Assembly (NCBI GenBank): GCA_007694025.1
Contig: RECL01000165.1
Span: 1-41,802 of the forward strand
Direction of reading: 5' to 3'
From: Spirochaetaceae bacterium
GTDB taxonomy: Bacteria > Spirochaetota > Spirochaetia > DSM-27196 > SLST01
DNA: 41,802 nt
Of this stretch, positions 7,282 to 20,808 are shown piece by piece (position 1 is the first letter of the stretch; every line of letters begins with the position of its first letter). The notes beneath the pieces are model-generated. The model did not search any database. It saw only the letters and a program-made list of their open reading frames with translations, and had not been told where the DNA came from. Position numbers and translations under genes: made by a program.

Positions 7282-8946
7282 CTACAGTTCAAGCAGGTGG
7301 TGCTCGTGGTACATCGAGTCACGGAGCGCGCGCACGTCTTCGTTACGCAGGTAGTCGTCGAAGCGCATCGACCGGTCGATCACCCCGCCGGGGGTGAGCT
7401 CGATGATCCGGTTCGCGATCGTGTGGACGAACTCGTGATCGTGACTCGTGAACAGCACGACCCCCTTGAAATCGATGAGCGCGTCGTTGAGCGCGGTGAT
7501 CGCTTCCAGGTCCAGGTGGTTCGTCGGTTCGTCCATGATCAGCACGTTCGGCTCGGCGAGCATGAGTTTGCTCAGCATGCACCGCACCCGCTCACCGCCG
7601 CTCAGCACGCTCACCTTCTTCAGCGTTTCGTCGCCCGTGAAGAGCATCCGACCCAGGAAGCCACGAACGTACGACTCCTCTTCGACCTCGGTGTACTGGC
7701 GCAGCCACTCGATCAGGCTGAGGTCGCCTGAGAAGTAGTCGGTGCTGTCCTTCGGAAAGTAGCCCGGCGTGATCGTCTGACCCCAGTCGAACGATCCGGT
7801 ATCGGGTTTGCTCTCGCCGGCCAGGATCTCGAACAGCGCGCTCTTTGCCTGGTGGAATGGTCCGACGAAGACGATCTTGTCAGCCGGGTTCACGGTCAGT
7901 GTGAAGTTGTTCAGAACCGGCTCGTCCTCGACGTCCTTGCCCAGACCCTCGATCTCCAGAACGCGCTTGCCAACGTCGCGGGCCGAGTTGAACGCGATGT
8001 AGGGCGCCTTGCGGCTCGACGGCTTGATGTCGTCGACCGATAGTTTCTCCACGAGCTTCTGGCGACTGGTGGCCTGTTTCGACCGCGCGGCATTCGATGA
8101 GAAGCGCGCGATGAACTCCTTCAACTCGGCGATCTTGTCCTCCCGGCGCTTCTTGTCGTCGCGGAGTTGCTTGCGCGCGAGCTGCGACGAGTGGAACCAG
8201 AAGTCGTAGTTGCCGACGTAGAGCTGCATCTTCGCGAAGTCGATGTCGACGATGTGCGTAGTGACCTTGTTCAGGAAGTGCCGGTCGTGCGACACGACGA
8301 TCAGCGTGTTCTTGAAGTTCATCAGGAACTCTTCGAGCCAGCCGACCGAGTCCAGGTCCAGGTTGTTCGTCGGTTCGTCCAGCAGCAGGATGTCGGGGTT
8401 GCCGAAGAGCGCCTGCGCCAGGAGCACCCGCACCTTCTGCCCGCCGTCGAGCTCGCTCATCTTCCGCTCGAGCAGTTCGTCCGACAGTCCGAGCCCGGAG
8501 ATCAGCCGTCCGGCCTCGCTTTCGGCTTCCCAGCCGCCGAGCTCGGCGAACTCGCCTTCGAGCTCGGCCGCCCGCATCCCGTCTGCCTCGGTGAAGTCGC
8601 TCTTCTCGTAGACCGCGTCCTTCTCCCTCATCACGTCGTAGAGTCGGCGGTGTCCCAGGATGATCGCGTGGAGCACCGACAGCTCCTCGTACGCAAACTG
8701 ATCCTGTTTGAGCACCGCGAGCCGTTCGCCCTTCGGGATGATGACCTCACCCGAGTCGGGTTCGATGTCCCCGGAGAGGATCTTGAGAAAGGTCGACTTC
8801 CCTGCGCCGTTGGCGCCGATCACGCCGTAGCAGTTGCCCGGCGTGAACTTGAGCGAAACGTCCTTGAACAGAACGCGATCTCCGTACTGGAGCGCGATAT
8901 TTGCAGCTGTAATCACTGCGTCAAGGTACTGAATCTCGCCCGGCAC
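7282..8946 (-). CDS. ABC-F family ATPase (two NBDs, no TMD); probable true start GTG at 8916
   Basis: NBD1 has Walker A GANGAGKST, signature LDGGQ, Walker B ILLLDEPTNNLD. A charged linker DDKKRREDKIAELKEF follows. NBD2 has signature LSGGE and Walker B VLIMDEPTNHLD but a deviant P-loop GPFHQAKS. The ORF-track start at 8946 is GTG. TACCTT at 8928-8923 followed by 6 nt and GTG 8916 gives a typical ABC-F N-terminus VITAANIALQYGDR. Confidence 0.9.
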   Translation of the reverse strand: MPGEIQYLDAVITAANIALQYGDRVLFKDVSLKFTPGNCYGVIGANGAGKSTFLKILSGDIEPDSGEVIIPKGERLAVLKQDQFAYEELSVLHAIILGHRRLYDVMREKDAVYEKSDFTEADGMRAAELEGEFAELGGWEAESEAGRLISGLGLSDELLERKMSELDGGQKVRVLLAQALFGNPDILLLDEPTNNLDLDSVGWLEEFLMNFKNTLIVVSHDRHFLNKVTTHIVDIDFAKMQLYVGNYDFWFHSSQLARKQLRDDKKRREDKIAELKEFIARFSSNAARSKQATSRQKLVEKLSVDDIKPSSRKAPYIAFNSARDVGKRVLEIEGLGKDVEDEPVLNNFTLTVNPADKIVFVGPFHQAKSALFEILAGESKPDTGSFDWGQTITPGYFPKDSTDYFSGDLSLIEWLRQYTEVEEESYVRGFLGRMLFTGDETLKKVSVLSGGERVRCMLSKLMLAEPNVLIMDEPTNHLDLEAITALNDALIDFKGVVLFTSHDHEFVHTIANRIIELTPGGVIDRSMRFDDYLRNEDVRALRDSMYHEHHLLEL

Positions 8947-9093: not shown

Positions 9094-9333
9094 ATGAGAA
9101 CCACGCTCGACATCGACGACGACGTGCTCAGGATCGCACGGCGGGTTTCCGCCGCGACGCAACGGCCGATCGGAAAAGTCATCTCCGATCTCGCGGCTCG
9201 CGGTCTTGCCGCACGGGGAACGCTGGAGGAGAAGGACGGGATTCCTGTGTTTTCCGTCGCCGAGTCCGCACCGACCTTTGGTCCCGATCAGGTCCACGCG
9301 GCACTGGACGAGGCCGATGACCTACCTCGCTGA
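9094..9333 (+). CDS. vapB: Type II antitoxin, VapB-like
   Basis: 79 aa. N-terminus MRTTLDIDDDVL typical of VapB-type antitoxins. Overlaps the downstream PIN toxin gene by 17 nt. Confidence 0.75.
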   Translation: MRTTLDIDDDVLRIARRVSAATQRPIGKVISDLAARGLAARGTLEEKDGIPVFSVAESAPTFGPDQVHAALDEADDLPR

Positions 9334-9751
9334 CGTCAACGTCATGATCGCGCTTTCGTGGCCAAACCACGTTCACCACGCCGTGGCGAGCGCCTGGTTT
9401 CGGTCCCTCGCGGGAGACCGATTCGCAACCTGTCCGCTGACCGAAGTAGCATTCGTCCGGCTGTCGATGAACCCCGCGGTGGTCGGGTATGTCATGCCGT
9501 ATGAGACCATAACTCAGGCACTGGAGATGTATCGAACGCACCCGAAGCACGACTTCTGGCCCGATCGAGCGGACTTTCTGTCGGCGACGCGCGGGTGCCG
9601 GCTGTCGGGACACCGCCAGGTGACCGACGCGTATCTGATCGGGCTTGCGACCTCAAGACGCGGCGCCCTCGTGACCTTCGACGCAGCGGTGCGGTCGCTG
9701 ATCGCTGCGTTGCCGAACGGCGAGCCGTCGTCGGTGGTCGTCTTGGAGTAG
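9317..9751 (+). CDS. vapC: Type II toxin, PIN-domain ribonuclease VapC
   Basis: Internal ATG at 9317 of ORF 9206..9751 gives 144 aa starting MTYLADVNVMIAL (first acidic PIN residue). Later TEVAFVRL and VTDAYLIGLA motifs are present. The start overlaps vapB. Confidence 0.8.
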   Translation: MTYLADVNVMIALSWPNHVHHAVASAWFRSLAGDRFATCPLTEVAFVRLSMNPAVVGYVMPYETITQALEMYRTHPKHDFWPDRADFLSATRGCRLSGHRQVTDAYLIGLATSRRGALVTFDAAVRSLIAALPNGEPSSVVVLE

Positions 9752-9753
9752 GT

Positions 9754-10563
9754 TCACATCCGCGTCCCGATCAGGTTGCCGCTCTCGTACTTGCGCAGAC
9801 CCCGTCGGAACAACAGTACTGAAACCAGCACGATCAGCGCGTCGGCGGCGATCACGATCGCGAGAAGGCGTGCATCGAAGGCGCGGAAGATCCGCGCGGG
9901 GATGTACGCGACGAACGCGGCCGGGATCAGCGTGTGGAGGACCCACGCGGTCGGACCGCGGAAAACGGAGCCGGGGTAGAGCGTGAACGTGAGCAGTAAC
10001 TCGCCTGAGAGCCCCGCGAACCCTTCGGCGTTCCCGAAGGAGAAGCTCGCCGAGTGGTACGCGACGCGTACCGACACGAGCACGATCCCGAGCAACAGCG
10101 AGAAGAGCGCGAAGAGCCCCACGTTCGCGAGCGACAGCGGTTGCGTCGCGAAGAAGAGGATGATCCCGTACGCGAAGTCGCCCCAGCCCGCGACCATCGT
10201 GCGGCTCATCAGCACGTTCGGCAGGACCGGTTTCGGCTGCAGCAGGTAGACATCGAGCTCGCCCGAGTAGATGATTCGCGACAGGAACATCGCGTTACCG
10301 CAGAGAACGACGCCCAGCCCGAACCCGGTTGCCGCGAGCGACCAGAGGAACATCACGTCGGCGAGCGCGTACCCGGCGATGTCTCCGCCGATCCGCTCGA
10401 AGAGCACCATCCAGAAGATGATGAACGCGCTGTTGTTGAGCGCCATGCCCACAACCTGGATCACGAAGCTCGTCGAGTACGCCATGCTCGCGCTGAGGTT
10501 GAACCTGAAGTAGTGCGCTGCAAGCCGCAGCATCCCGCCGCGACGGCGGTTTGATCGATCCAT
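9754..10563 (-). CDS. ABC-2 type transporter permease (COG3694/DUF990-like)
   Basis: Start trimmed to ATG 10563 (MDRSNRRRGGMLRLAAHYFRF...), 1 nt after the stop of the upstream permease. About 6 TM helices. Third gene of the ATPase/permease/permease unit. Confidence 0.75.
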   Translation of the reverse strand: MDRSNRRRGGMLRLAAHYFRFNLSASMAYSTSFVIQVVGMALNNSAFIIFWMVLFERIGGDIAGYALADVMFLWSLAATGFGLGVVLCGNAMFLSRIIYSGELDVYLLQPKPVLPNVLMSRTMVAGWGDFAYGIILFFATQPLSLANVGLFALFSLLLGIVLVSVRVAYHSASFSFGNAEGFAGLSGELLLTFTLYPGSVFRGPTAWVLHTLIPAAFVAYIPARIFRAFDARLLAIVIAADALIVLVSVLLFRRGLRKYESGNLIGTRM

Positions 10564-10564
10564 G

Positions 10565-11380
10565 TCAGCCTCCCTGCACGTGCAGCTTTCGCACTGCGGA
10601 GCGGAATACTCCCGCGGCGAGCGCGAGGAGCGCCACCGCGTACACAAACTGCCCGACTATCGTCGTCATCGCGCGGTCGAAGGAGAAGTCGACCCACGTG
10701 CTCGCCGGCCAGTACGCGACGAACGCGAACGGCGACCATCGCGCCACGTTCGCCAGCCACTCCGGGTAGAAGTCGAGCGGGATGAACATCCCGCCGATCA
10801 CGAAGACCAGTTTCTGGATGATCCACCAGAACGGCGATACTTCCTCGAACCAGAACGCGAGCAGCCCGATGATCGTCTGGACGGTGGTCCCGATCAGCAC
10901 GCCCATCACGATCGCGACCAGCCCCACCGGCAGCGCGGTGAGGTAGCCGGGAAGCGGGCCGACGAAGAGCGTCGCGACGACGAAGCCGGTCAGAAGCATC
11001 GGCGCGATCTTCACGATGTTCTCACCCATCGATCGGCTGATCCAGTAGAGCACGTACGAGTAGGGGCGACAGAGCGAGTACGCGATCGTACCGTCTTTCA
11101 CCTCGGCGGAGATTGGCATGAAGACCCGGGTCTGGCTGAGCTCGATCGTTTCTGTGAACGTCAGGTACCAGAGCACCTGCACCATCGTGAACCCCGCGAT
11201 CGTCGTCGCACCGGACGCGGCGACTCCGTCGGGCGCGCCGCCATAGATCACCCGCCACAGGGAATAGAAGACGAAGAGGATGATCACGAAGAAGACGTTT
11301 CGCATCAGAAACGACGCGATGTAGACGACCTGGTCGCGCGCCGCGATCGCGAACACCGTCGCGTACTTGCGCGCGCTCAT
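10565..11380 (-). CDS. ABC-2 type transporter permease (COG4587-like)
   Basis: Start trimmed to ATG 11380 (MSARKYATVFAIAARDQ...), forming an ATGA overlap with the ATPase stop at 11377-11379. Multi-TM protein. Confidence 0.75.
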   Translation of the reverse strand: MSARKYATVFAIAARDQVVYIASFLMRNVFFVIILFVFYSLWRVIYGGAPDGVAASGATTIAGFTMVQVLWYLTFTETIELSQTRVFMPISAEVKDGTIAYSLCRPYSYVLYWISRSMGENIVKIAPMLLTGFVVATLFVGPLPGYLTALPVGLVAIVMGVLIGTTVQTIIGLLAFWFEEVSPFWWIIQKLVFVIGGMFIPLDFYPEWLANVARWSPFAFVAYWPASTWVDFSFDRAMTTIVGQFVYAVALLALAAGVFRSAVRKLHVQGG

Positions 11381-12393
11381 GACTCGACCTCCGCGGGTTC
11401 CGGCGGGGCGGGGCGGCCGGTACGCTCGTAGATGTGCGTGATCACCTCCTCCATCGGCGCCGATGAGATCGTGATGTCCTGGATGCTCGACTGGCGCAGA
11501 AGCTCCGAGATCACGCGCTCGGCCGACGATACGCCCAGGTCGACCTCGATCTTCATCGAGTAGTCGCGCTGCTTCAGGACCGTGACCCCGGGCAGCGATA
11601 CAGTCGCCGGCCCGTCCATCTTGACCTCGACGATCCGCCGGTTCAGGAACGAGTACTTCATCTCCTTGACCGTGCCGTCCCAGACGATCGACCCGTGGTT
11701 GATCACGATCGCGCGGCGGCAGATCTTTTCGATGTCCCCAGCGTCGTGCGAGGTCAGGAAGACCGTGACGCGCTCTTCGGCGTTGATCCGCGCGATCAGG
11801 TCGCGGATGCGCTGCTTGACCACGACGTCCAGGCCGATGCTCGGCTCGTCGAGGAAGAGCACGCGTGGGCTGTGGATCAGCGACCCGGCGATCTCGCACC
11901 GGATCCGCTGGCCGAGCGACAGCTTGCGGACCGGCTGATCGATGAACTCGCCGATCTCGAACACCTCGGTCAGGAAGTCGATGCGCTTCACGGTCTCCGC
12001 GGTCGACAGGTCGTAGATCGTCCCAAGGAGCCGGAACGAGTCGGCCGGCGGCAGATGAAACCAGAGCTGGCTCTTCTGCCCGAACACGGTGCCGATCCGG
12101 TACGCGAGCGCCTTCCGCTGCCTATGCGGGTCCATCCCCATCACGCGTACGGTTCCGGCGTCGGGGTAGAGGATCCCGGTGATGAGCTTGATCGTGGTAG
12201 ACTTTCCCGCGCCGTTCGGACCGATGAACGCGACGACCTCACCGGGCTCGATCGCGAAATCGATCCCGCGCACCGCGTCGATCGTCCGCCGCTCGGGCCG
12301 GACGAGTCCCGCGATGCTCGCGGCAAGCCCGTGCTGCTTGACCCGCATCGTGAAGCTCTTGGTCAGGTGTTCGACGTGAACGATCGGTTCCAT
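11377..12393 (-). CDS. ABC transporter ATP-binding protein (COG4586-like)
   Basis: Start trimmed to ATG 12393 (MEPIVHVEHLTKSF), preceded by GAGGAGGAG SD at 12405-12397. Walker A GPNGAGKST, signature LSLGQR, Walker B VLFLDEPSIGLD. Confidence 0.9.
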   Translation of the reverse strand: MEPIVHVEHLTKSFTMRVKQHGLAASIAGLVRPERRTIDAVRGIDFAIEPGEVVAFIGPNGAGKSTTIKLITGILYPDAGTVRVMGMDPHRQRKALAYRIGTVFGQKSQLWFHLPPADSFRLLGTIYDLSTAETVKRIDFLTEVFEIGEFIDQPVRKLSLGQRIRCEIAGSLIHSPRVLFLDEPSIGLDVVVKQRIRDLIARINAEERVTVFLTSHDAGDIEKICRRAIVINHGSIVWDGTVKEMKYSFLNRRIVEVKMDGPATVSLPGVTVLKQRDYSMKIEVDLGVSSAERVISELLRQSSIQDITISSAPMEEVITHIYERTGRPAPPEPAEVES

Positions 12394-12455
12394 CTGCTCC
12401 TCCTCGCGACGTTCTTCGCGTCTGAGCGGCGGGCGGTTACGATCGCCGGCGGAGC

Positions 12456-12487
12456 AAAAAAAAGCCCGCGGGCGATCTCCCGCGGGC
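12456..12487 (-). terminator. Rho-independent terminator inside the 5' leader of the ABC-2 operon
   Basis: Minus strand reads GCCCGCGGG-AGAUCG-CCCGCGGGC followed by U8. This is a 9-bp all-GC stem (12464-12472 / 12479-12487), a 6-nt loop and a T-run at 12463-12456. It lies 62 nt upstream of ATG 12393. Confidence 0.75.
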
Positions 12488-12506
12488 GTCACTGCAGACA
12501 GTGGAC

Positions 12507-12581
12507 CTACCCCCGGGACACACCACAAATGACAGTAACGACGAGTAGCTGCCACTTGGAGGTCATCCGCGGAGCGGTCAT
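12507..12581 (-). CDS. Candidate leaderless sORF / leader peptide (24 aa: [24 protein letters not shown])
   Basis: ATG 12581 lies 5 nt downstream of TAGAAA (12592-12587). An upstream TG and TTGACG (12615-12610) at 17-nt spacing complete the promoter. TAG stop at 12509-12507 is immediately followed by hairpin 12506-12488 and the terminator. Many A/T-ending codons (CTA, GTT, ACT, ATT, TGT, GGT) are atypical for this genome. Too short for the ORF track; no homology evidence. Confidence 0.3.
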
Positions 12582-12586
12582 GTGGT

Positions 12587-12644
12587 TTTCTACCACTGCG
12601 ATGAGTTCCCGTCAAGTGACACGACTGGTCTTTTCCGCGATAAT
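12587..12644. promoter_or_regulatory. Back-to-back divergent promoters: minus TTGACG(12615-12610)-N17-TAGAAA(12592-12587); plus GTGACA(12616-12621)-N17-GATAAT(12639-12644)
   Basis: Hexamers read from the sequence. The two -35 elements abut. The plus promoter is followed by AAGGAG SD (12651-12656) and the MCP ATG at 12666. Confidence 0.45.
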
Positions 12645-12665: not shown

Positions 12666-14348
12666 ATGAAGCTAAACGACGTATACCGGGATTCCGGAGT
12701 GGTGGTACGGACCAGGGCGCCCCAGGTAATGAGCGTCCTTGTGCTAATTCTGGCGATCATGCCGGTGATTATTGTCTCAGAGATCCTCCAGGGCGACTAC
12801 CTGGATGCAGCGATCCAGAGTGCGGTTATAGTCGTGATGGCGGTATCGATCGTACTGCTACGTAGGGGTCGATTCAGGTTCGCAAGCCTTGCGCCGCTGG
12901 TCGTATCCACTCTCGTCGTCGTCGCGCTTGCGTTCATCGTTGACCCGAATCAGCCGCAGGCGGTCTACACCGTCGGATTCTACATGACGGCTCCGCTCTT
13001 CCTGTCGATCGTCGTCGCGGACAGCGAGTGGTATCCGATTGCGAGCGCCGCCGTTGGGATCGTGACGGTTGTCGCGGTCAGTCTCGCGATTATCGGGCCG
13101 GCTGTAGCGAGTACGAGCGGCGAAGGAATTGTCCAGCCGCTTGCGGTGACCGTCGCGATAACGGTGCTCAATGGTGCGTTCGCATTTCTGCTCGCCCGTT
13201 CCGGGCGTACATCGCTTGAGCGCATCGATGCAACGACCAAAGAAGCGATCGCGACGCTCGACCGGATCGGCAGGGTGAACCGCGATGCCCGCGGCAGCGC
13301 GAGCGCGGCCGCAGCCATCGGAGACGACTACCAGCAGGTCGAGATTAACCTCTCGCAGATCGAGCAGCAGATGACCGAGCTGCGGGAAACCGCTCGGCAA
13401 CTGATGGAGAATGTGGGGCGCGCGCTCGATTCGGTCCGGTCCACCGCAGATCGAGTCGTCGGCTTCCACGCGCAGGTCGACGAGCAGAACACTGTTGTGC
13501 AGGAGTCGACCGCCTCCGTGAATGAGATGTCTGCGTCTCTCGACTCGGTTGCTCAGATCACCGCGGCCAAGCGTGAGGCGAGCGATGCGCTGCTTGGCGT
13601 CGTCGATGCAGGGCTGAAGGCTCTTGAGCAGACAAATGCGTCCTTCACCGAAGTCAGCAAGGAGATGACGTCGCTCCTCGAGATAAACGCGATCATCGGC
13701 GACATCGCCGCGCAGACGAACTTGCTGTCGATGAACGCCGCGATCGAGGCGGCACACGCCGGTGACAGCGGCAGAGGGTTCGCTGTAGTCGCCGATGAGA
13801 TCAGAAAGCTCGCGAGTTCTACAGCCGAAAACTCGCGGGTGATATCTGAGAACCTGAAGAAGATCAAGACATCGATCGATGCAACCGGTACGCACGCGTC
13901 GCAGACGACCGACGCGATGGGGAAGATCTCGAACGAGGTGCGGGAAGTGTCCGCCGCGTTCGAGGAGATCACCGGATCGACCGCGGAGCTTTCGCAGGGC
14001 GGTCGGGAGATCATGAACGCGATGCAGGTCTTGCAGAACTCGTCGGTCGCGGTGCGCGACGGATCGGATCAGATCGCTCGCGACCAGGAGACTGCGCGCT
14101 CGGAGATGGACCGAGTCGGTGCGATCGTCACCGATATCGAGCGCTCGACCAGCCAGGTTGGCACCGCCCTGTCGTCGATAGCCGCGTCGATGAAGCACCT
14201 GCGCGCGACGATAGACCGGTCGACCGAGCAGTCGGAGCAACTTCGACGGTCGATGGACGAATTGCTCGCCGCAGACACTGCCCCGGCGACGCGTGCAACC
14301 GTTGACCCGACCCCTGCGGCAGCGGCCGCTGCAGCCATCTCACCGTGA
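12666..14348 (+). CDS. Methyl-accepting chemotaxis protein with multi-TM N-terminal sensor region
   Basis: Start trimmed to ATG 12666 behind AAGGAG. About 6 N-terminal TM helices. Conserved MA hairpin-tip motif [34 protein letters not shown]. Confidence 0.9.
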
Positions 14349-16388
14349 CACTGACGGCGCATCGGCGCCGTCGACGCACTCCGGAATCCTGATCGTGAAG
14401 CGGGTCCCGCCACCGTTGATGTCGGATCGGACGACGACTGTGCCGGAGAGCTTTTCCTCCACCAGGGTCTTGACGATCGACAGTCCAAGTCCCGAACCGC
14501 CACGCTCTTCAGCGCTTGTGTAGAAGCGGTCGAACACTCTCGGCAGCACGTCCGGTGGTATCCCGGCCCCGTCGTCGGAGACTACGATGCACAGCGAGCG
14601 GTTCGAGGACCCGGCTGTGACTCCGCCGGGGGCCTCTATACCGGCAGTGACGCACACCCGTCCTGATCGATCTCGAAGCCCGTGCTCGACCGCGTTGCGG
14701 ACCAGGTTCGTGATGATCTGCGTAAGGAAGCCCGGGACTGTCCGGAAGCCCAGACCGGCCGGCACCTCCCACGTCAGTTCGTGTTCCGATCGCTTGTACC
14801 GCAGAACGAGCGGCCTCAGCACACGCGCGATGTACGCGTCGACGTCCAGGATCTCTGCTGCCAACGTCGCCTGTTCCTTTGCAGTTTGCCGGACCGCGTG
14901 AACAAGCGTTCGGGCGTGGATCGCGCTCTCTTCCAGCAGCGTGCCCGCGTCTGCGATCGCGTCGGAGTCGGCCTTCCGGACAGCAGCGTCGTCCGCCATC
15001 CGTGTGCGCGCCCTCAGGTCGGAGCCGATCAGTAGCGCTGTCCCAAGCGGTGTCTCAAGCTCGTGCGCGATATCGGCAACAAGGTTGGCGAGGTCTGCGG
15101 CTCGCGCCGCGTCGACTATCTGTCCGCGAACCGCCTCGATCTCGAGCTCCGCAACCCGTCTGCGGTCACGGTCGCCCATCCGCGCCGCTTCCGTCCGACG
15201 CAGGATCGTCGCAGCGATCATGCTACTCTGTACGATGAACGCGATCGTCAGGACGAGCGAGGTGTCGGCGAAACCGTCGGGTGCGGCGATTCGACCCAGG
15301 TTTACAAGCGTCTGGACACCACCTGCAAGGAGCAGCGTGCCCCACGCGATGAGTACCGGCATTGACGCCGGGAACCGCAGTACCGCGCACGCGACCAGCA
15401 GTACGAGCGTGACAGGATAGATCACGATCAATCCGATTGACGCGATCTGAAAACCGGTCACCACGGGAAACACGAGAACCGCGGCTACGGCGCCGCCGAT
15501 CGCGCAGGTCATCGTGTTCGTTGCCGCAAGGATGATCCGGTGTCGCCGGTCAAGCTCCATGAGAAACCTGAAGAGCTGCAGGCTGAGTCCGAACGTGAGG
15601 AGCGACCCGATCCGGCCAACCACGGACGTGACGCCGGGGGCAGCTCGCCAGAGGACGAGCGGCCCAAGGCCCGTGCCGTACGTGATGAGGATCGACAGAA
15701 CGATCGCGAGTGCGAAATAGATGATGAACTCGGGTCGCTTCCCGGATGAGAGCGCGACGAACGCGTACACGACAACCATGACCGCGAATCCGACGCCGAT
15801 GCCCTGAAGCAGACCCACCGATCGTGAGCGCTCCAGGAGGCGAGCGCCACCGAGCAGGGAGAAGCGCGGGTTTAGTGATGATGTCGACTCCATCCTGATG
15901 TAGACGATCGTCTCTCTGTCCCTGGCCAAGTTCAGCGGTACCGCGGAGAACGACACGCTGCGGGTGAACCAGCTCTCGTCGGGGCGGACCATCCATCCGC
16001 TCGATCCGACACGCAACACTCCGCGTCCGACCGCGCCCCCGAGGTCGGTCCCGTCTGCCGACCCGATGAAGACATCGAACCTGTCGATTCCGTGGAACTC
16101 GCCGAGCGTGACGATCGGGTTCGTCGACTCGTTGCGGACCCTCATGCGTAGCCAGATTGCGTCGCGAGTGTAGCCGAACGCAAGAGGAGCGGGGGCCGGC
16201 TGCCACTCCTCTTCATGGAGCTTCACGACCGTCGCGATGTCCAGCCCCCCGTCCGGATCCCGCACAAACTCCAGTGAATCCGGTGCGACGCGAACTTCAT
16301 CATGGTCCGACCGAACGATGAGAGCGCCACCGGTTGACGCGAGCCAGGACAGGCCGGCCAACACCAGCCCCACGCGCAGCCAGCGCAT
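14340..16388 (-). CDS. 7TMR-DISM sensor histidine kinase
   Basis: Start trimmed to ATG 16388 ([12 protein letters not shown]...), a 1-nt TGATG overlap with the upstream RR stop. Periplasmic DISMED2-like domain ([18 protein letters not shown]) and 7 TM helices. H-box [17 protein letters not shown]-box [13 protein letters not shown]1 DDGAGIP, G2 [10 protein letters not shown]. Confidence 0.85.
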
Positions 16389-17899
16389 CAGTCGGGTAGC
16401 CTTGCAAGGATCTCTGTGACTTCGCCGCGCAGCCGGGCAAACTGTTCGGTAAGCCCGGGGTCGAAATCTGACCCTCCGCGCTCTATGATGTGCAGAAACG
16501 CGTCGCTGACGTCCCAGGCCCGCTCGTAGACACGCGCATGGGTCAGCGAGTCGAAGACGTCGGCTATCGCGGTCATTCGCGCCTCGATCGGTATCGATTC
16601 CCCGATCAGCCGATCCGGATAGCCGCTTCCGTTCCATCGCTCGTGGTGAGACCTCGCGATCACGGCGGCCAGCCGCATCACGTCGTCGTTGATACTGCTC
16701 AGCAAATCGTGTCCGAACACCGTGTGATCCCGCATCACGGTCAACTCTTCGGGAGAGAGAGAGCCAGGTTTGGTCAGGATACGATCGGGCACGCCGACCT
16801 TTCCGACGTCATGAAGCGATGACGCAAGTCGTCTGCTCTCCACAACCTCGGGAGGTTCACCGTTGCACTCACTGAGCAAACCGACGATCCGCCCGACCCG
16901 CCGGACGTGGTTTCCGGTGTCGCCCGATCTGCGTTCCACCAGTTCACCGAGCAGGTAGGCGGTCTCGCGCTGCGACTGACTGCGAATCAGCGTCATCGAC
17001 AGGCTGTCGTACGCGATCGAAATGCTGCTCGCGAGTGTGGCGAGTAGCGGTCGGCTGGTTTCATCCACCTGGCTGGGCAGCGCTGCGTACAGGACGACGC
17101 GTTGACCGGTGCGATCCAGCGTCATCACGAATCGTTCGTCTCGGATCACCGGGCATTGGGCGGACCGGCTCTCTTCGGCAATCTCTGCTATGCGACGGGT
17201 CATATCATCAGGACGTTCTTCGGCCAGTGATCGGAACGCGCCCGTGTACGCGATAGCCGAACCGATCCCATCGCGTTCCTGAATGGCGATCCCATCGACT
17301 TGGCCTCCGGTGCCGAGTAGACGCCCGATCTGGCGGATCGCCACGGCTGCGAAGTCGGCAAGCGAACGAGTCTTCCAGAACTCTGCTGTAGCCGTTGCAA
17401 TAGTCTCAAAGCCGTGGATGCCCTGCTCGATCCTGACAATGTCCTGGTAGCCACGGAGCGCGACGATCACCGCGGTTATCAGACGTGTGCCGGTGAGCTC
17501 GGTTTTCTCCTTGTAGTCGTTGATCTCGTACTGCTGAATGATCTCATCTTCGGGAGCTCGTCCAGGCTGGCCGGTACGAAGGATGATCCGCATCGCACGA
17601 TTGCCAAGGTCGTTTCGGATCCACCGAACCAGCTGAAGCCCCGCGTCATCGCTTTCCATGACAACATCGACGATCGCAACGGCTATGTCTGCGTGCCGGA
17701 CGCACGCGTGCCTGGCGTCTTGCGCGCTTCGCGCCGAGATCATCTCGACGGCGCGGCCGTCGTGCGTGAAGCCGTTCAGGATCATCGCGGTCACCCGATG
17801 AACTATCTCTTCATCATCGACGACGAGTACGCGCCACGCGTCGACCGAACCGCTCGTTCCGGCCGGCGTGTTCTTTTTGACCGGAGGATGCTCCGTCAT
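16388..17899 (-). CDS. Response regulator: REC + GAF-like (DUF3369-type) + HD-GYP phosphodiesterase domain
   Basis: 503 aa. REC motifs VVDDEE, IVDVVME, LRTGQPG, NDYKEK. HD-GYP motifs HDVGKVGVPD and HHERWNGSGYP. ATGA overlap with the upstream gene stop (17896-17899). Confidence 0.9.
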   Translation of the reverse strand: MTEHPPVKKNTPAGTSGSVDAWRVLVVDDEEIVHRVTAMILNGFTHDGRAVEMISARSAQDARHACVRHADIAVAIVDVVMESDDAGLQLVRWIRNDLGNRAMRIILRTGQPGRAPEDEIIQQYEINDYKEKTELTGTRLITAVIVALRGYQDIVRIEQGIHGFETIATATAEFWKTRSLADFAAVAIRQIGRLLGTGGQVDGIAIQERDGIGSAIAYTGAFRSLAEERPDDMTRRIAEIAEESRSAQCPVIRDERFVMTLDRTGQRVVLYAALPSQVDETSRPLLATLASSISIAYDSLSMTLIRSQSQRETAYLLGELVERRSGDTGNHVRRVGRIVGLLSECNGEPPEVVESRRLASSLHDVGKVGVPDRILTKPGSLSPEELTVMRDHTVFGHDLLSSINDDVMRLAAVIARSHHERWNGSGYPDRLIGESIPIEARMTAIADVFDSLTHARVYERAWDVSDAFLHIIERGGSDFDPGLTEQFARLRGEVTEILARLPD

Positions 17900-19233
17900 G
17901 CCGTCTCCTCGTGAAACTCGATTCTGAGCCCGTGCGGAGGCACCGAAAGCCTGGTCACTGACCGGACTCCTGCCTGGTCGCGCAGGCCGGTGCAGAGCGC
18001 GCCAAGGACGAGTGTTTCGGCGAAACGGGCGACTTCCGATCTCTGGAGTGGATTGCTGCAGTCAGCCCAGACGTCGGGGGGAATATCGACGCCAAGGATA
18101 TCGATCGACGGAGTCGACGACGTGTTTTCGACGATCCGTTGTGGGTTCGATCCGACCGTCCAGCCGCTCAAACGTGAGAGCTCGATCAGATCAATGACGA
18201 GTCTGACGAACTGATTGGCTAGGATGGTCGTCCGCCGCGAATCGCCTGCTGGGTCCCTATGCGCAGACTCCACGGGAATACCGATCGAGCTTGCCGTGTC
18301 CACCAGGCGATCGATCAGCTCAGGTATCGGCATCGTCGAAGCCGGAGAGTCGTCCCTGCTGAGATACACCTGTTTGAGCGTCCGCAGTCGTTGCGCAGCG
18401 ACCTCGAGCCCGGTGCGTGCCGCGACGATACGCTCGTCGGCACCGTCGCGCTCGGGAAGCGCCGAAATCGCGAGCAGGGCGGTGCCGACCGGCGTCGATA
18501 GCCAGTGCGACACGCCGGCGACGAAACGCGCCGCGCCTTTAGATACCGCAGCTTCCGCGAGCCCGGCACGCGTCGATTCGAGCTGTTGTGAGACGCGTAA
18601 CTGAGCAAGGTTGAACAGCGACATCAGGAACAGGACTGACGTACCCGCGACCGCAAGGGTTGCCGGTACTGTGGCCGCATCTGCAGTTCCGATTGAGTCG
18701 GTCGCGACTATGATGGCGATGACACCACGTGCGCCCCACGCCGCCGAAACCAGCGACGCAGCTGCTATCGCGAACAGCCCCGTTGCATCGCGGCCGGCGC
18801 GGCGGTGTCGCACCAGTCGGATGGCGACCCTTGCGAACACCAAGGCTGACCACGCGTTGAAGACGGATATACGCGCCGGGAAGAGGCTCAGGTCTACCGA
18901 CAGGAGCAGCAACGCCGCGAGCGCGACGACGTTCGTGATCAGGAATCCTCTTCTTCTTCCGGCGGTAAGCGAGAAGACGAACCGGAGCACGCCGACATCG
19001 AGGCTCGAGTAGGCGAGGAAGAACAGCCCGTACGCAATCGCGACCAGGAGCGGTCGTCCGGAAATCCCCGGGATAGCGTTCATCGCGATGGCGATTGTGA
19101 AGAACACTGCATACGCGAACCAGGCGAGAATGTAGCCCCGTCGACCGGTCTCAAAGTACGCGATGAGTAGTGACAGCGCGGACGCGGTCATCAGAACGGC
19201 GTAGAGAGTATACGAGAAGGTCACGCTGTCCAC
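17896..19233 (-). CDS. Multi-TM sensor-kinase-like protein with conserved H-box but degenerate ATP-binding domain
   Basis: 445 aa. GTG start at 19233 behind AAGGAGGA. 6-7 TM helices. H-box-like VAGVSHWLSTPVGTALL is paralogous to the HK H-box. The C-terminal region aligns to the HK G1 region (ILGVDIPPDV versus [10 protein letters not shown]) but lacks the N-box Asn and both G-boxes. Confidence 0.6.
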   Translation of the reverse strand: MDSVTFSYTLYAVLMTASALSLLIAYFETGRRGYILAWFAYAVFFTIAIAMNAIPGISGRPLLVAIAYGLFFLAYSSLDVGVLRFVFSLTAGRRRGFLITNVVALAALLLLSVDLSLFPARISVFNAWSALVFARVAIRLVRHRRAGRDATGLFAIAAASLVSAAWGARGVIAIIVATDSIGTADAATVPATLAVAGTSVLFLMSLFNLAQLRVSQQLESTRAGLAEAAVSKGAARFVAGVSHWLSTPVGTALLAISALPERDGADERIVAARTGLEVAAQRLRTLKQVYLSRDDSPASTMPIPELIDRLVDTASSIGIPVESAHRDPAGDSRRTTILANQFVRLVIDLIELSRLSGWTVGSNPQRIVENTSSTPSIDILGVDIPPDVWADCSNPLQRSEVARFAETLVLGALCTGLRDQAGVRSVTRLSVPPHGLRIEFHEETA

Positions 19234-19266
19234 TCGTCCTCCTTCCGACCGCGGTCGATCTTTGCT

Positions 19267-20808
19267 CTAGTCCGGGAACTGCTCCAACAACTCTGCGACG
19301 TCCGCCTCGAGCCGTACGAACAGCTGTACGATGTCAGGGTGAAAGTCCCGCTCGCTGCGATCTACCACGTAGGAAAACGCGCGGTCGAACTCCCACGCTT
19401 CCTTGTAGACTCGCTCGTGCGTCAGCGCGTCGAATACATCGGCGATCGCGGTCATCTGCGCCACTTGCGGGATTGACTCACCCGCGAGCGCGTCCGGATA
19501 CCCCGATCCGTCCCACCGCTCGTGATGCGAGCGGGCGATCGTCGATGCGATCGTCATGAAATCCCCGTGGTCGCGTTGGAGGAGTCTGCTGCCGATCACC
19601 GTGTGCTCCTGCATCTGCCGGAACTCGGCTGGGAGCAGCTTGCCCGGGTTCTCCAGGATCGCGTCCGGGATTCCCATCTTGCCGACATCGTGGAGCGTCG
19701 CGGCAAGGTGCCATCGATCGGCCGTCTCCGGTGACTGCCCCGACAGCTCGGCGATGCGCCTGACTATCTCACCTACGCGTTTGACGTGGTGTCCGGTCTC
19801 CTTTGACCGTTTCTCCACGAGCTCTCCTAGAAGGTAGATCATCTCCCTCTGCGACCGCTCGAGCTCAAGCGCCACGGTGAGCCCGTCGAGCCCGAGCGCC
19901 ACCGTAGAAGAATACGCCGACAGGATGAAGCGGTCCACATCGTCTATCGGACGGGCGGTTCGCAGGACCATCGCGCTTGGGGATCCACGCCGGGCCTCCA
20001 GGAGGGTGCCGACGTAGGGCGGATGATACACCGTCCCTCCACCGTTGCAGGCCGATTCGATCACTGCGGCGCGCGCGCTTTGGGCTCGCGACTTCTGAGC
20101 ACCCATGACCTGGCCACCTGACTCGGTCGTCGCCCGGATGATTCCAGGTTCCGCGCATCCCACGATAGTCGCGTCGCTCTCTCCACTGGTTGCGCCCAGC
20201 AGACCCGCGGCGCATTCGGTTGCGTGCGTCAGATAGTCGTCAATCGATCGGTGATCCCAGAACGACGTCGCGGTGGCGACTATCTGTTCCAGCCCGGCTC
20301 TGCCGCGGCTGATCGTGACCAAATCGCAGTATCCCCGGAGTGCGACGGTGAGGGTCGTGGCCAGGCGAGTGCTCGTGAGTTCGGTCTTTTCCTTATAGTC
20401 GTTGATCTGGTACTGCTCGATGACTTGTCGCTCCGGTGCGCAGCCTGGTTGGCCGGTGCGGATCACGATCCTCATCGTGTCGTTGCGAAGCTCTTCGCGA
20501 ATCCAGCGGATAAGTTCCAGTCCGGAGGAGTCGGTCTCCATTACGACATCGATCAGCGCGACGGCGGTGTCCGGATGCGCGACCAGAACTCTCCGAGCCT
20601 CGAGGCCGCTGAGCGCACCCAGGAAGTCGATTTCCCGACCCCGGAACCTGAAGTCGCGGAGAACCAGGCGGGTAACGCGGTGCACCGACTCATCGTCGTC
20701 GACGATCAGGACCTTGAGCGGATCGTTCGGGCATTCCGTTTCGGCCACGTGCGCGGCGTCGGCGCGCGGGTGACTCTGGGTTGTAGAGCGCTCGTCGACC
20801 TCCCCCAA
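19267..20808 (-). CDS. Response regulator: REC + GAF-like (DUF3369-type) + HD-GYP phosphodiesterase domain (paralog of 16388..17899)
   Basis: 513 aa. TTG start at 20808 preceded by GGGGGAG (20823-20817) and TATGAT (20840-20835). REC motifs IVDDDE, LIDVVME, IRTGQPG, NDYKEK. HD-GYP motifs HDVGKMGIPD and HHERWDGSGYP. Confidence 0.9.
   Translation of the reverse strand: MGEVDERSTTQSHPRADAAHVAETECPNDPLKVLIVDDDESVHRVTRLVLRDFRFRGREIDFLGALSGLEARRVLVAHPDTAVALIDVVMETDSSGLELIRWIREELRNDTMRIVIRTGQPGCAPERQVIEQYQINDYKEKTELTSTRLATTLTVALRGYCDLVTISRGRAGLEQIVATATSFWDHRSIDDYLTHATECAAGLLGATSGESDATIVGCAEPGIIRATTESGGQVMGAQKSRAQSARAAVIESACNGGGTVYHPPYVGTLLEARRGSPSAMVLRTARPIDDVDRFILSAYSSTVALGLDGLTVALELERSQREMIYLLGELVEKRSKETGHHVKRVGEIVRRIAELSGQSPETADRWHLAATLHDVGKMGIPDAILENPGKLLPAEFRQMQEHTVIGSRLLQRDHGDFMTIASTIARSHHERWDGSGYPDALAGESIPQVAQMTAIADVFDALTHERVYKEAWEFDRAFSYVVDRSERDFHPDIVQLFVRLEADVAELLEQFPD

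Follow-up and report, generated by a model that had tools for sequence, protein, structure and literature searches.

A conserved small-ORF leader ahead of a natA-like ABC-2 transporter operon in Spirochaetota, a likely ribosome-mediated transcription attenuator

Leader-peptide attenuation is textbook biology for amino-acid biosynthetic operons. In Escherichia coli, ilvL-ilvGMEDA, ilvBN and leuL are leader-peptide attenuators of branched-chain operons, and in Corynebacterium glutamicum the ilvB, leuA and trp attenuators of biosynthetic operons have leaderless leader peptides with mapped start sites. The bmrB leader of Bacillus subtilis is longer, has a Shine-Dalgarno (SD) sequence, answers ribosome-targeting antibiotics and controls the type-I exporter heterodimer bmrCD. 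Here we describe a leader from a Spirochaetaceae bacterium, in which a small open reading frame (sORF) and an intrinsic terminator precede a three-gene operon for a natA-like ATP-binding cassette (ABC) transporter of the ABC-2 type. It lies on the minus strand of a 41.8-kb stretch of contig RECL01000165.1, which is called the window below and to which all window coordinates refer.

The ilv-leu operon of Staphylococcus aureus has a leucine-rich attenuator peptide (PMC5794164). The ykkC subtype 2a riboswitch binds guanosine tetraphosphate (ppGpp) and promotes read-through (Sherlock, Sudarsan and Breaker 2018, PMC6003355). In the same paper, 78 of 105 examples lay upstream of branched-chain biosynthesis genes and 12 of 105 upstream of 'natA + COG3694 + COG4587' operons, and its authors stated that they knew of no connection between ppGpp and these transporters. 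A later study added 23 more natA-associated aptamers, almost all of them from Paenibacillaceae (PMC9881157).

The comparison of the window with related genomes points to a classical ribosome-mediated transcription attenuator that would control the ATPase gene and two PF06182 permease genes; we regard this reading as likely. The parts of the leader, their conservation and their alternative pairings are established by the sequence and its comparison with relatives. The elements of the window that carry the argument are as follows.

12615-12610, minus strand: -35-like hexamer TTGACG, read directly.
12595-12587, minus strand: putative extended -10-like element TG-n-TAGAAA (TG at 12595-12594, TAGAAA at 12592-12587), read directly, after a 17-nucleotide (nt) spacer from the -35.
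12581-12507, minus strand: leader sORF of 24 codons plus TAG (12509-12507), by direct reading and ORF translation.
12579-12549, minus strand: segment 1, the 5' half of the sORF (GACCGCUCC...), predicted anti-antiterminator; in minimum free energy (MFE) folds without a ribosome it pairs with the sORF 3' end.
12548-12528, minus strand: candidate control codons L12 L13 V14 V15 (T16) V17 I18 (CTA CTC GTC GTT ACT GTC ATT), at the apex of the 1:2 hairpin.
12526-12499, minus strand: segment 2, predicted 5' strand of the antiterminator (codons 19-24, TAG and the 5' half of the bulged hairpin), from a constrained fold of the nascent transcript.
12506-12488, minus strand: bulged hairpin GUCCACUG-UCUG-CAGUGAC, read directly; apex of the antiterminator in the window.
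12494-12470, minus strand: segment 3, predicted 3' strand of the antiterminator (the 3' half of the hairpin, the entire 5' arm of the terminator, its loop and the first bases of its 3' arm), from the constrained fold.
12487-12456, minus strand: intrinsic terminator GCCCGCGGG-AGAUCG-CCCGCGGGC plus U8, by terminator call, -20.7 kcal/mol; conserved in all leaders.
12455-12394, minus strand: 62-nt spacer with the SD GAGGAGGAG and no promoter-like site on this strand.
12393-11377, minus strand: ABC ATPase, natA-like, COG4586 type (Pfam).
11380-10565 and 10563-9754, minus strand: two ABC2_membrane_6 (PF06182) permeases (Pfam).

Computationally, these components of an attenuator are found here: a leader ORF, a terminator with no later promoter, an antiterminator that overlaps the end of the ORF and an anti-antiterminator. 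An earlier note made from the letters of this DNA had proposed a leader-peptide attenuator, a riboswitch or a small membrane peptide gene; conditional termination by a leader peptide is favoured among these by the conserved sORF and terminator, the codon periodicity and an antiterminator that is better than chance.

The promoter TTGACG-N17-TAGAAA (12615-12587) given in that note is read directly, and its -35 and geometry are conserved in about 20 orthologous leaders, where TTGAC stands at an equal distance from the sORF ATG. The relatives have -10 hexamers of the form TAnnnn with the same spacing, ending 5-10 nt before the ATG. In these loci the -35 is near-perfect TTGACA, contrasting with odd -10 hexamers (TAGAAA, TACACC, TACAAG, TAGACC, TAAACC, TATCAC) that share an unusual form in which the usual final T is missing. 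In the window, ATG 12581 comes only 5 nt after the -10, and for this reason the sORF is probably leaderless, with its start site deduced from the promoter spacing. ORF translation agrees with the 24-codon frame. The codons singled out as unusual are indeed rare in the neighbouring genes, where CTA makes up 5% of Leu, ATT 8% of Ile, ACT 7% of Thr and GTT 15% of Val codons. The strong terminator has a stem at 12487-12464 with nine G-C pairs and a 6-nt loop, and its T8 tail (12463-12456) is the sole run of at least 8 A/T in the window, again as described earlier. The SD and the ATPase start at 12393 are read directly as well, and the N-termini of orthologues agree with this start. The whole leader folds more stably than its shuffled versions (z = -3.0). 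The hairpin at 12506-12488, which the earlier note had also listed, is present in the window, and its conservation is limited to one relative with 95% identity (L134); as an independent conserved element it was rejected.

The closest genomes belong to Alkalispirochaeta-like Spirochaetota with 62-77% ATPase identity, one metagenomic relative reaching 95%. The comparison covered 21 leaders (the window and loci L002, L004-L006, L008-L013, L015, L017, L134-L139, L141 and L142), of which eight were added through exact-protein look-ups. Scanning metagenomes with an ATPase alignment contributed little on the leader: among the matches listed (at least 600 stretches), identity was at most 59%. The layout common to the 21 leaders reads TTGAC, 17 nt, TAnnnn, 5-10 nt, ATG, sORF and stop codon, followed by a gap of 19-31 nt to the stem of a GC-rich terminator, 9-105 nt, the SD and the ATPase ATG. 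The sORF has 19-31 codons in 20 leaders and 40 in L017. The terminator is kept in all leaders with one compensatory C-G/U-A pair; its tails range from T6 to T10, the tract being interrupted in L009. L007 carries a partial copy of this layout and the L140 locus has no leader. In this way the upstream comparison suggested by the earlier note recovered the sORF and the terminator throughout the 21 leaders. A covariance model (R1) built from 13 close leaders found exactly one copy in the window, at 95 bits, and also recruited L008 as an extra member. We also observed that L002, L004 and L136 have a common GUCGUCC motif 10-20 nt past the U-tract, which echoes the GUCGUC of the sORF Val codons and is absent in the window.

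The genes upstream of the leader vary and include those for a methyl-accepting chemotaxis protein (MCP), alcohol dehydrogenase, GH30, DUF4379, histidine kinase, melibiase and an ABC permease. Wherever the leader occurs, it accompanies the ATPase operon and not the gene upstream, which changes from locus to locus. In L005, L139 and L142 the T-tract runs straight into GGAGGAAGC-ATG, so that the spacer from the terminator to the ATG is only 9 nt. Since the U-tract touches the ATPase SD in these three loci, a separate promoter is excluded there, and the ATPase can be expressed only via read-through of the terminator; this obligatory read-through disfavours a stand-alone small RNA or peptide gene.

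Folding predicts three mutually exclusive pairings: in 1:2 the sORF 5' half pairs with the sORF 3' end, in 2:3 this 3' end pairs with the 5' arm of the terminator, and 3:4 is the terminator itself. Independent MFE folds of the 21 leaders gave one architecture, in which the stop-codon region pairs with the first codons in a long-range helix and the terminator comes after it. Within this helix lie two hairpins, one bearing the hydrophobic codons and a short one with a different sequence at each locus. For the constrained fold, a 30-nt footprint was placed over the hydrophobic codons and the transcript was ended four bases into the 3' arm of the terminator. Under these constraints the MFE structure was the antiterminator in nearly all leaders; in the window it pairs 12526-12499 with 12494-12470. 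The 5' part of the terminator adds -22.9 kcal/mol in the window, as compared with -11.7 ± 2.9 kcal/mol for dinucleotide shuffles of the upstream strand (z = -3.9), and the energy gain is better than that of the shuffles in 20 of the 21 leaders (mean z = -1.78). Taken as plain duplexes, the stop-codon region and the terminator apex gave weak single z-scores for energy (mean -0.9), since chance pairing between G-rich and C-rich strands is already good.

Covariation was examined in an alignment-free manner by comparing cognate with non-cognate duplex energies, double-centred, over 20,000 permutations; the compared leaders are mutually related and therefore the p-values overstate independence. For 2:3 (antiterminator strand against terminator apex) the cognate pairs were better with p = 0.007 (reversed-sequence control, p = 0.21), and for 1:2 (first 12 codons against the stop-codon region) with p = 5e-5 (reversed control, p = 0.005). 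A compensatory change is seen in L135, which has GGGGCAGGUUC with GAACCGCCCC where the others have GGGGUAAGGUC with GACCUGNCCC, and in L009 and L010 the pairing is still kept by quite different sequences. A pseudoknot reading of an X:Y pairing was rejected, as it would require a 0-nt loop over a 10-bp helix.

Some pairings proposed in the earlier note did not withstand the comparison. The CCUCC of the sORF, thought to be complementary to the ATPase SD, is already lost in L134 in spite of its 95% identity (ACGTCC). The long-range helix ACCACAUGAC/GUCAUUUGUGGU is absent from the MFE structure, and its 5' bases lie upstream of the likely start site and hence would be untranscribed. The pairing of CCGCGG with the terminator arms is needed by no predicted fold and is not among the conserved pairings.

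The sORF looks translated, judging by several features of its sequence. Its start, frame and stop are conserved among the leaders, and in nearly all of them the ATG stands at the predicted 5' end, 5-10 nt past the -10. In the close group the sORF has 22-25 codons, and of the 12 close leaders with the motif GGGGUA(A)GGUC, 10 have the stop inside it in frame. Codon periodicity was clear across 19 leaders: T makes up 39% of second positions, as against 16% of first and 21% of third positions (chi-square p = 1e-22), and purines predominate at position 1. In the hydrophobic run the second-position U is kept while the first and third positions are variable. The Christensenellaceae leaders L027 and L040 have a longer 5' untranslated region (UTR) and an AGGAG SD ahead of the ATG. 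Some features of the leader, in contrast, are RNA-level: between L004 and L136 there is a 1-nt indel close to the sORF 3' end, which alters the C-terminal peptide and leaves GUAGUGGGGUAAGGUC retained.

In the mechanism that we propose, transcription would start at or a few bases from the sORF ATG, and a ribosome would have to load during RNA synthesis. With no ribosome, 1:2 would pair, the terminator (3:4) would form and transcription would stop at U8. A ribosome reaching the TAG would cover approximately 12527-12497, that is, the whole antiterminator strand, and with this strand masked the terminator would form again. A ribosome held on the Leu-Leu-Val-Val codons (12548-12537) would break 1:2 and leave the strand 12526-12499 free; the freed strand would pair with the emerging 5' arm of the terminator (2:3) and RNA polymerase would read into the ATPase gene. 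These three states mean that the operon would be OFF by default and that slow translation would turn it ON. The most likely natural cause of such a stall would be a shortage of charged Ile, Leu or Val tRNA.

The leader may sense starvation, for branched-chain amino acids in our interpretation of the stall site. The stall window was defined from structure alone: it consists of seven codons and closes with the last A-site at which the antiterminator strand still escapes the footprint. In the window this stretch is KWQLLVV, with V15 as the last permissive A-site codon for a 30-nt footprint. Among 21 non-redundant leaders from three phyla, the fraction of Ile, Leu and Val (ILV) was 0.46 in the stall window and 0.23 elsewhere (Fisher p = 5e-7). 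The codons chosen for these residues are also unusual: ATT and ATA account for 70% in the sORFs as compared with 18% in the adjacent ATPase genes, and CTA for 9 of 29 Leu codons in the sORFs versus 5 of 412 in the ATPase genes.

Several points weigh against the proposed mechanism. A consensus promoter scanner did not call the leader promoter, because TAGAAA, a weak -10, lacks the final T; the same scanner called no other minus-strand promoter within 13200-11800. RNAalifold on a MAFFT alignment of the 13 close leaders gave the terminator as the only consensus structure, because the upstream helices are not column-aligned, and therefore the alignment-free duplex tests and shuffles were used. These covariation tests rest on about 16 related sequences, and the significance of the reversed 1:2 control (p = 0.005) means that part of this signal is base composition. 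A ribosome at codons 12-15 leaves segment 1 (codons 1-4) outside its footprint, so that the model has to invoke steric exclusion or a second ribosome queuing behind the first. Sequence is the basis for all that is proposed here on the start site, 3' ends, translation, stalling and signal.

Other points bear on the signal itself. The ILV clustering is modest in each peptide and not significant alone (window, 4 of 5; p ~0.16), and in the distant leaders L008, L011, L012, L036 and L041 only 1-2 of the 7 stall-window codons are ILV. A homopolymeric codon run like those of the his, phe and leu leaders is absent, the hydrophobic run also includes F, M, Y and W, which argues against ILV specificity, and the rare codons could merely reflect weak selection on a short ORF. 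An NCBIfam search gave the transporter neither a known substrate nor a known tie to branched-chain amino acids. Taking both sides together, we hold with reasonable confidence that the leader is a translation-coupled attenuator; that it is a branched-chain amino acid sensor is plausible and put forward tentatively.

The leader does not belong to a described RNA family. Rfam 15 (4227 models) at gathering thresholds gave no family in the whole window or in 17 spirochaete loci, so the scan proposed in the earlier note identified no known element. At E <= 10 the leader region gave only terminator-driven or wrong-strand matches, such as anti-hemB with 21 bits against a threshold of 49.5. RF00442 (guanidine-I) had no match in the window at gathering score or at E <= 10; a ykkC-like fold, with the conserved CUAGGGUUCCG and GGGAUAAAAGCC elements of that aptamer, was not found there.

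In loci from Clostridia, Paenibacillus, Cohnella and Tumebacillus the orthologous ATPase gene is preceded by a conserved aptamer and a terminator. These aptamers score 28-48 bits against RF00442 (gathering score 63), and such matches occur in the Firmicute orthologous loci only; the element fits the ykkC subtype 2a (ppGpp) class. The sub-threshold RF00442 matches are the following.

L019, 3819-3916: Firmicute aptamer.
L022, 3774-3914: Firmicute aptamer.
L029, 3807-3914: Firmicute aptamer.
L020, L021, L023, L024, L030, L032, L037, L042, L045, L046 and L071: further aptamer loci.

Near the transporter loci of two Firmicute relatives, and unrelated to the leader, we also noted a NiCo riboswitch (L025, 541-629, minus strand) and a tandem glycine riboswitch (L022, 6752-6927, plus strand).

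Meanwhile, Christensenellaceae (L027, L040) and Chloroflexi/Chloroflexota (L036, L041) have their own leaders made of an sORF and a terminator, with the same 1:2, 2:3 and 3:4 logic. L039 (Chloroflexota) probably has one as well. The loci annotated as Christensenellaceae are split, L021 carrying the aptamer and L027 and L040 the sORF leader. The non-spirochaete leader peptides (L027, L040, L036, L041 and probably L039) include MRFHQSDYSLVFIALIMPNKGLLVLT, MNGNLNKTCWSTVIEALIMQNKGLLVFT, MLNKHAYLVSITICTAMAETVGFGRGAACLGDAPKEA and MSFEHVCATFGLGTVLAVDLSQWIMVRAACLGDRLSAG; AACLGD, conserved in them, is the antiterminator strand.

From this distribution it is conceivable, and offered with some doubt, that the sORF attenuator (Spirochaetota, some Christensenellaceae, Chloroflexota) and the (p)ppGpp riboswitch (Clostridia, Paenibacillaceae) are interchangeable front ends of the COG4586/COG4587/COG3694 transporter. 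If so, they would single out this ABC-2 transporter as an effector devoted to amino-acid starvation, and to branched-chain starvation in particular, and would explain why ppGpp riboswitches control 'natA' operons, a question left from 2018. A further possibility is that an abundant terminated leader RNA of 126 nt acts in trans, like the attenuator RNA rnTrpL of other bacteria. The main value of the locus is comparative: one operon that is preceded by a ppGpp riboswitch in Firmicutes and, in this phylum and two others, by an apparent Ile/Leu/Val-codon attenuator. Convergence of two unrelated sensors on starvation or translation stress would offer a hint, open to test, of what a widespread ABC-2 transporter does.

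The same architecture could serve another signal, in which the stall would come from a translation inhibitor or a ligand acting on the nascent peptide, as in bmrB-bmrCD, erm, cat and ABC-F leaders, and the operon would be an induced exporter or resistance pump. The ATPase is nearest to the exporter-type DrrA subfamily, although below the cut-off, and a homologue bears the name 'viologen exporter family' in one database. What is conserved in the peptide is a general hydrophobic run (I/L/V/F/M/Y/W), preceded by a conserved Pro and often followed by D, S or P, and the ILV enrichment by itself is modest. The run loosely recalls the IFVI and IAVV arrest motifs of ErmCL and ErmAL. However, the peptide has no similarity to a known arrest peptide or Rfam leader, its C-terminal part is unconserved and tolerates the frame-changing indel of L004/L136, and the ILV-rich stall windows of three phyla have no common motif. 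The bmrB precedent invoked in the earlier note holds only as an analogy. The Firmicute counterpart, moreover, responds to (p)ppGpp, a starvation signal and not a drug, which suggests starvation or translation stress instead. We consider stalling by a drug or ligand unlikely.

A translation-independent riboswitch or RNA sensor is very improbable. In that case a fold of CUCGUCGU, GGGGUAAGGUC and the terminator apex would bind a ligand, conceivably an alarmone, with the ORF there only incidentally. Such a sensor would suit the way in which GGGGUA(A)GGUC and the complementary bases of the terminator apex are strongly conserved as nucleotides, even with the different frame of L136, as well as the short hairpin past the hydrophobic codons that covaries between loci and the riboswitch control of the orthologous Firmicute operon. 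An incidental ORF fits poorly with the ATG kept at the predicted 5' end, the in-frame stop retained across length variants, the codon-periodic composition and the SD that is present where the leader has a 5' UTR (L027, L040); there is also no Rfam match and no conserved multi-helix junction past the attenuator-type pairings.

An independent gene for a small RNA or a 24-residue hydrophobic peptide, unrelated to ATPase control, is highly unlikely: it would account for the promoter-like site and the very strong terminator, and terminated attenuator RNAs can act in trans in other bacteria (rnTrpL, PMC6614838), but the leader stays with the ATPase operon in spite of the varying upstream genes, no promoter-like site lies between the terminator and the ATPase (with no room for one in L005, L139 and L142), the hydrophobic run, with 5-7 residues, falls short of a membrane helix and the C-terminus is unconserved.

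The operon that the attenuator would regulate spans 9754-12393 (minus strand) and its three genes have the same order in all relatives. NCBIfam gave only a sub-threshold DrrA-subfamily match for the ATPase and none for the permeases, and no branched-chain amino acid genes were found in the 41.8-kb window. The ATPase frame is open through the entire leader, giving 412 aa from TTG 12615 (11377-12615, minus strand), and several public calls for homologues (P0002, P0007 and P0009-P0011) have 354-372 aa instead of approximately 330 aa. The ATPase start is therefore probably mis-annotated through the attenuator; as a practical point, public annotations often stretch this ORF across the leader.

On the other side of the leader, the divergent neighbour is an MCP gene (Pfam; ATG 12666). 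Its promoter-like GTGACA-N17-GATAAT lies at 12616-12644 (plus strand), and the -35-like GTGACA (12616-12621) stands back to back with the TTGACG of the leader. Further features of the surroundings are listed below.

9094-9751, plus strand: convergent gene pair directly after the last permease, at which the transporter operon ends; its VapB antitoxin and PIN-domain matches are weak and below cut-off, possibly a vapBC-type toxin-antitoxin.
7282-8946, minus strand: ABC-F type protein (two ABC_tran and ABC_tran_Xtn), on the same strand as the transporter with the convergent pair between them.
14340-20808, minus strand: 7TMR-DISM histidine kinase, then two paralogues with response-regulator, DUF3369 and HD-GYP-type (HD_5) domains.
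16388-17899 and 19267-20808, minus strand: the two HD_5 paralogues.
17896-19233, minus strand: ORF of 445 aa between the paralogues, with no Pfam match.

Literature searches found no report of this leader, whether in Spirochaetota or ahead of this transporter family. The ppGpp riboswitch of Firmicutes precedes the same three-gene operon in the same position, and it would share with the leader the ON output by antitermination and a signal linked to amino-acid starvation. It differs in the sensor, a ligand-binding aptamer there and, as we propose, a translated sORF in the window. Like bmrB, the window has a putatively translated leader ORF and a terminator before an ABC transporter operon, with read-through that would depend on the position of the ribosome; unlike bmrB, it is non-homologous, apparently has no SD and shows no link to drugs. 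With the C. glutamicum leaders it shares a transcript that would begin at the start codon, deduced in the window from promoter spacing only, and it differs from them in its phylum and its transporter target.

The resemblance to ilvL- and leuL-type attenuators extends to the short leader ORF, the terminator before the first structural gene, the exclusive 1:2, 2:3 and 3:4 pairings and the predicted default termination. Ile, Leu and Val codons, including the rare CUA, may likewise be placed so that a stalled ribosome would free the antiterminator. In contrast to those leaders, the one in the window would control an ABC-2 transporter and not biosynthetic genes, has 4-6 ILV codons and no long run, has an apparently leaderless sORF, and is found in Spirochaetota without sequence similarity to them. 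The proposed mechanism is closest in kind to that of ilvL and leuL; what differs is the target, the apparently leaderless sORF, the phylum and the sequence.

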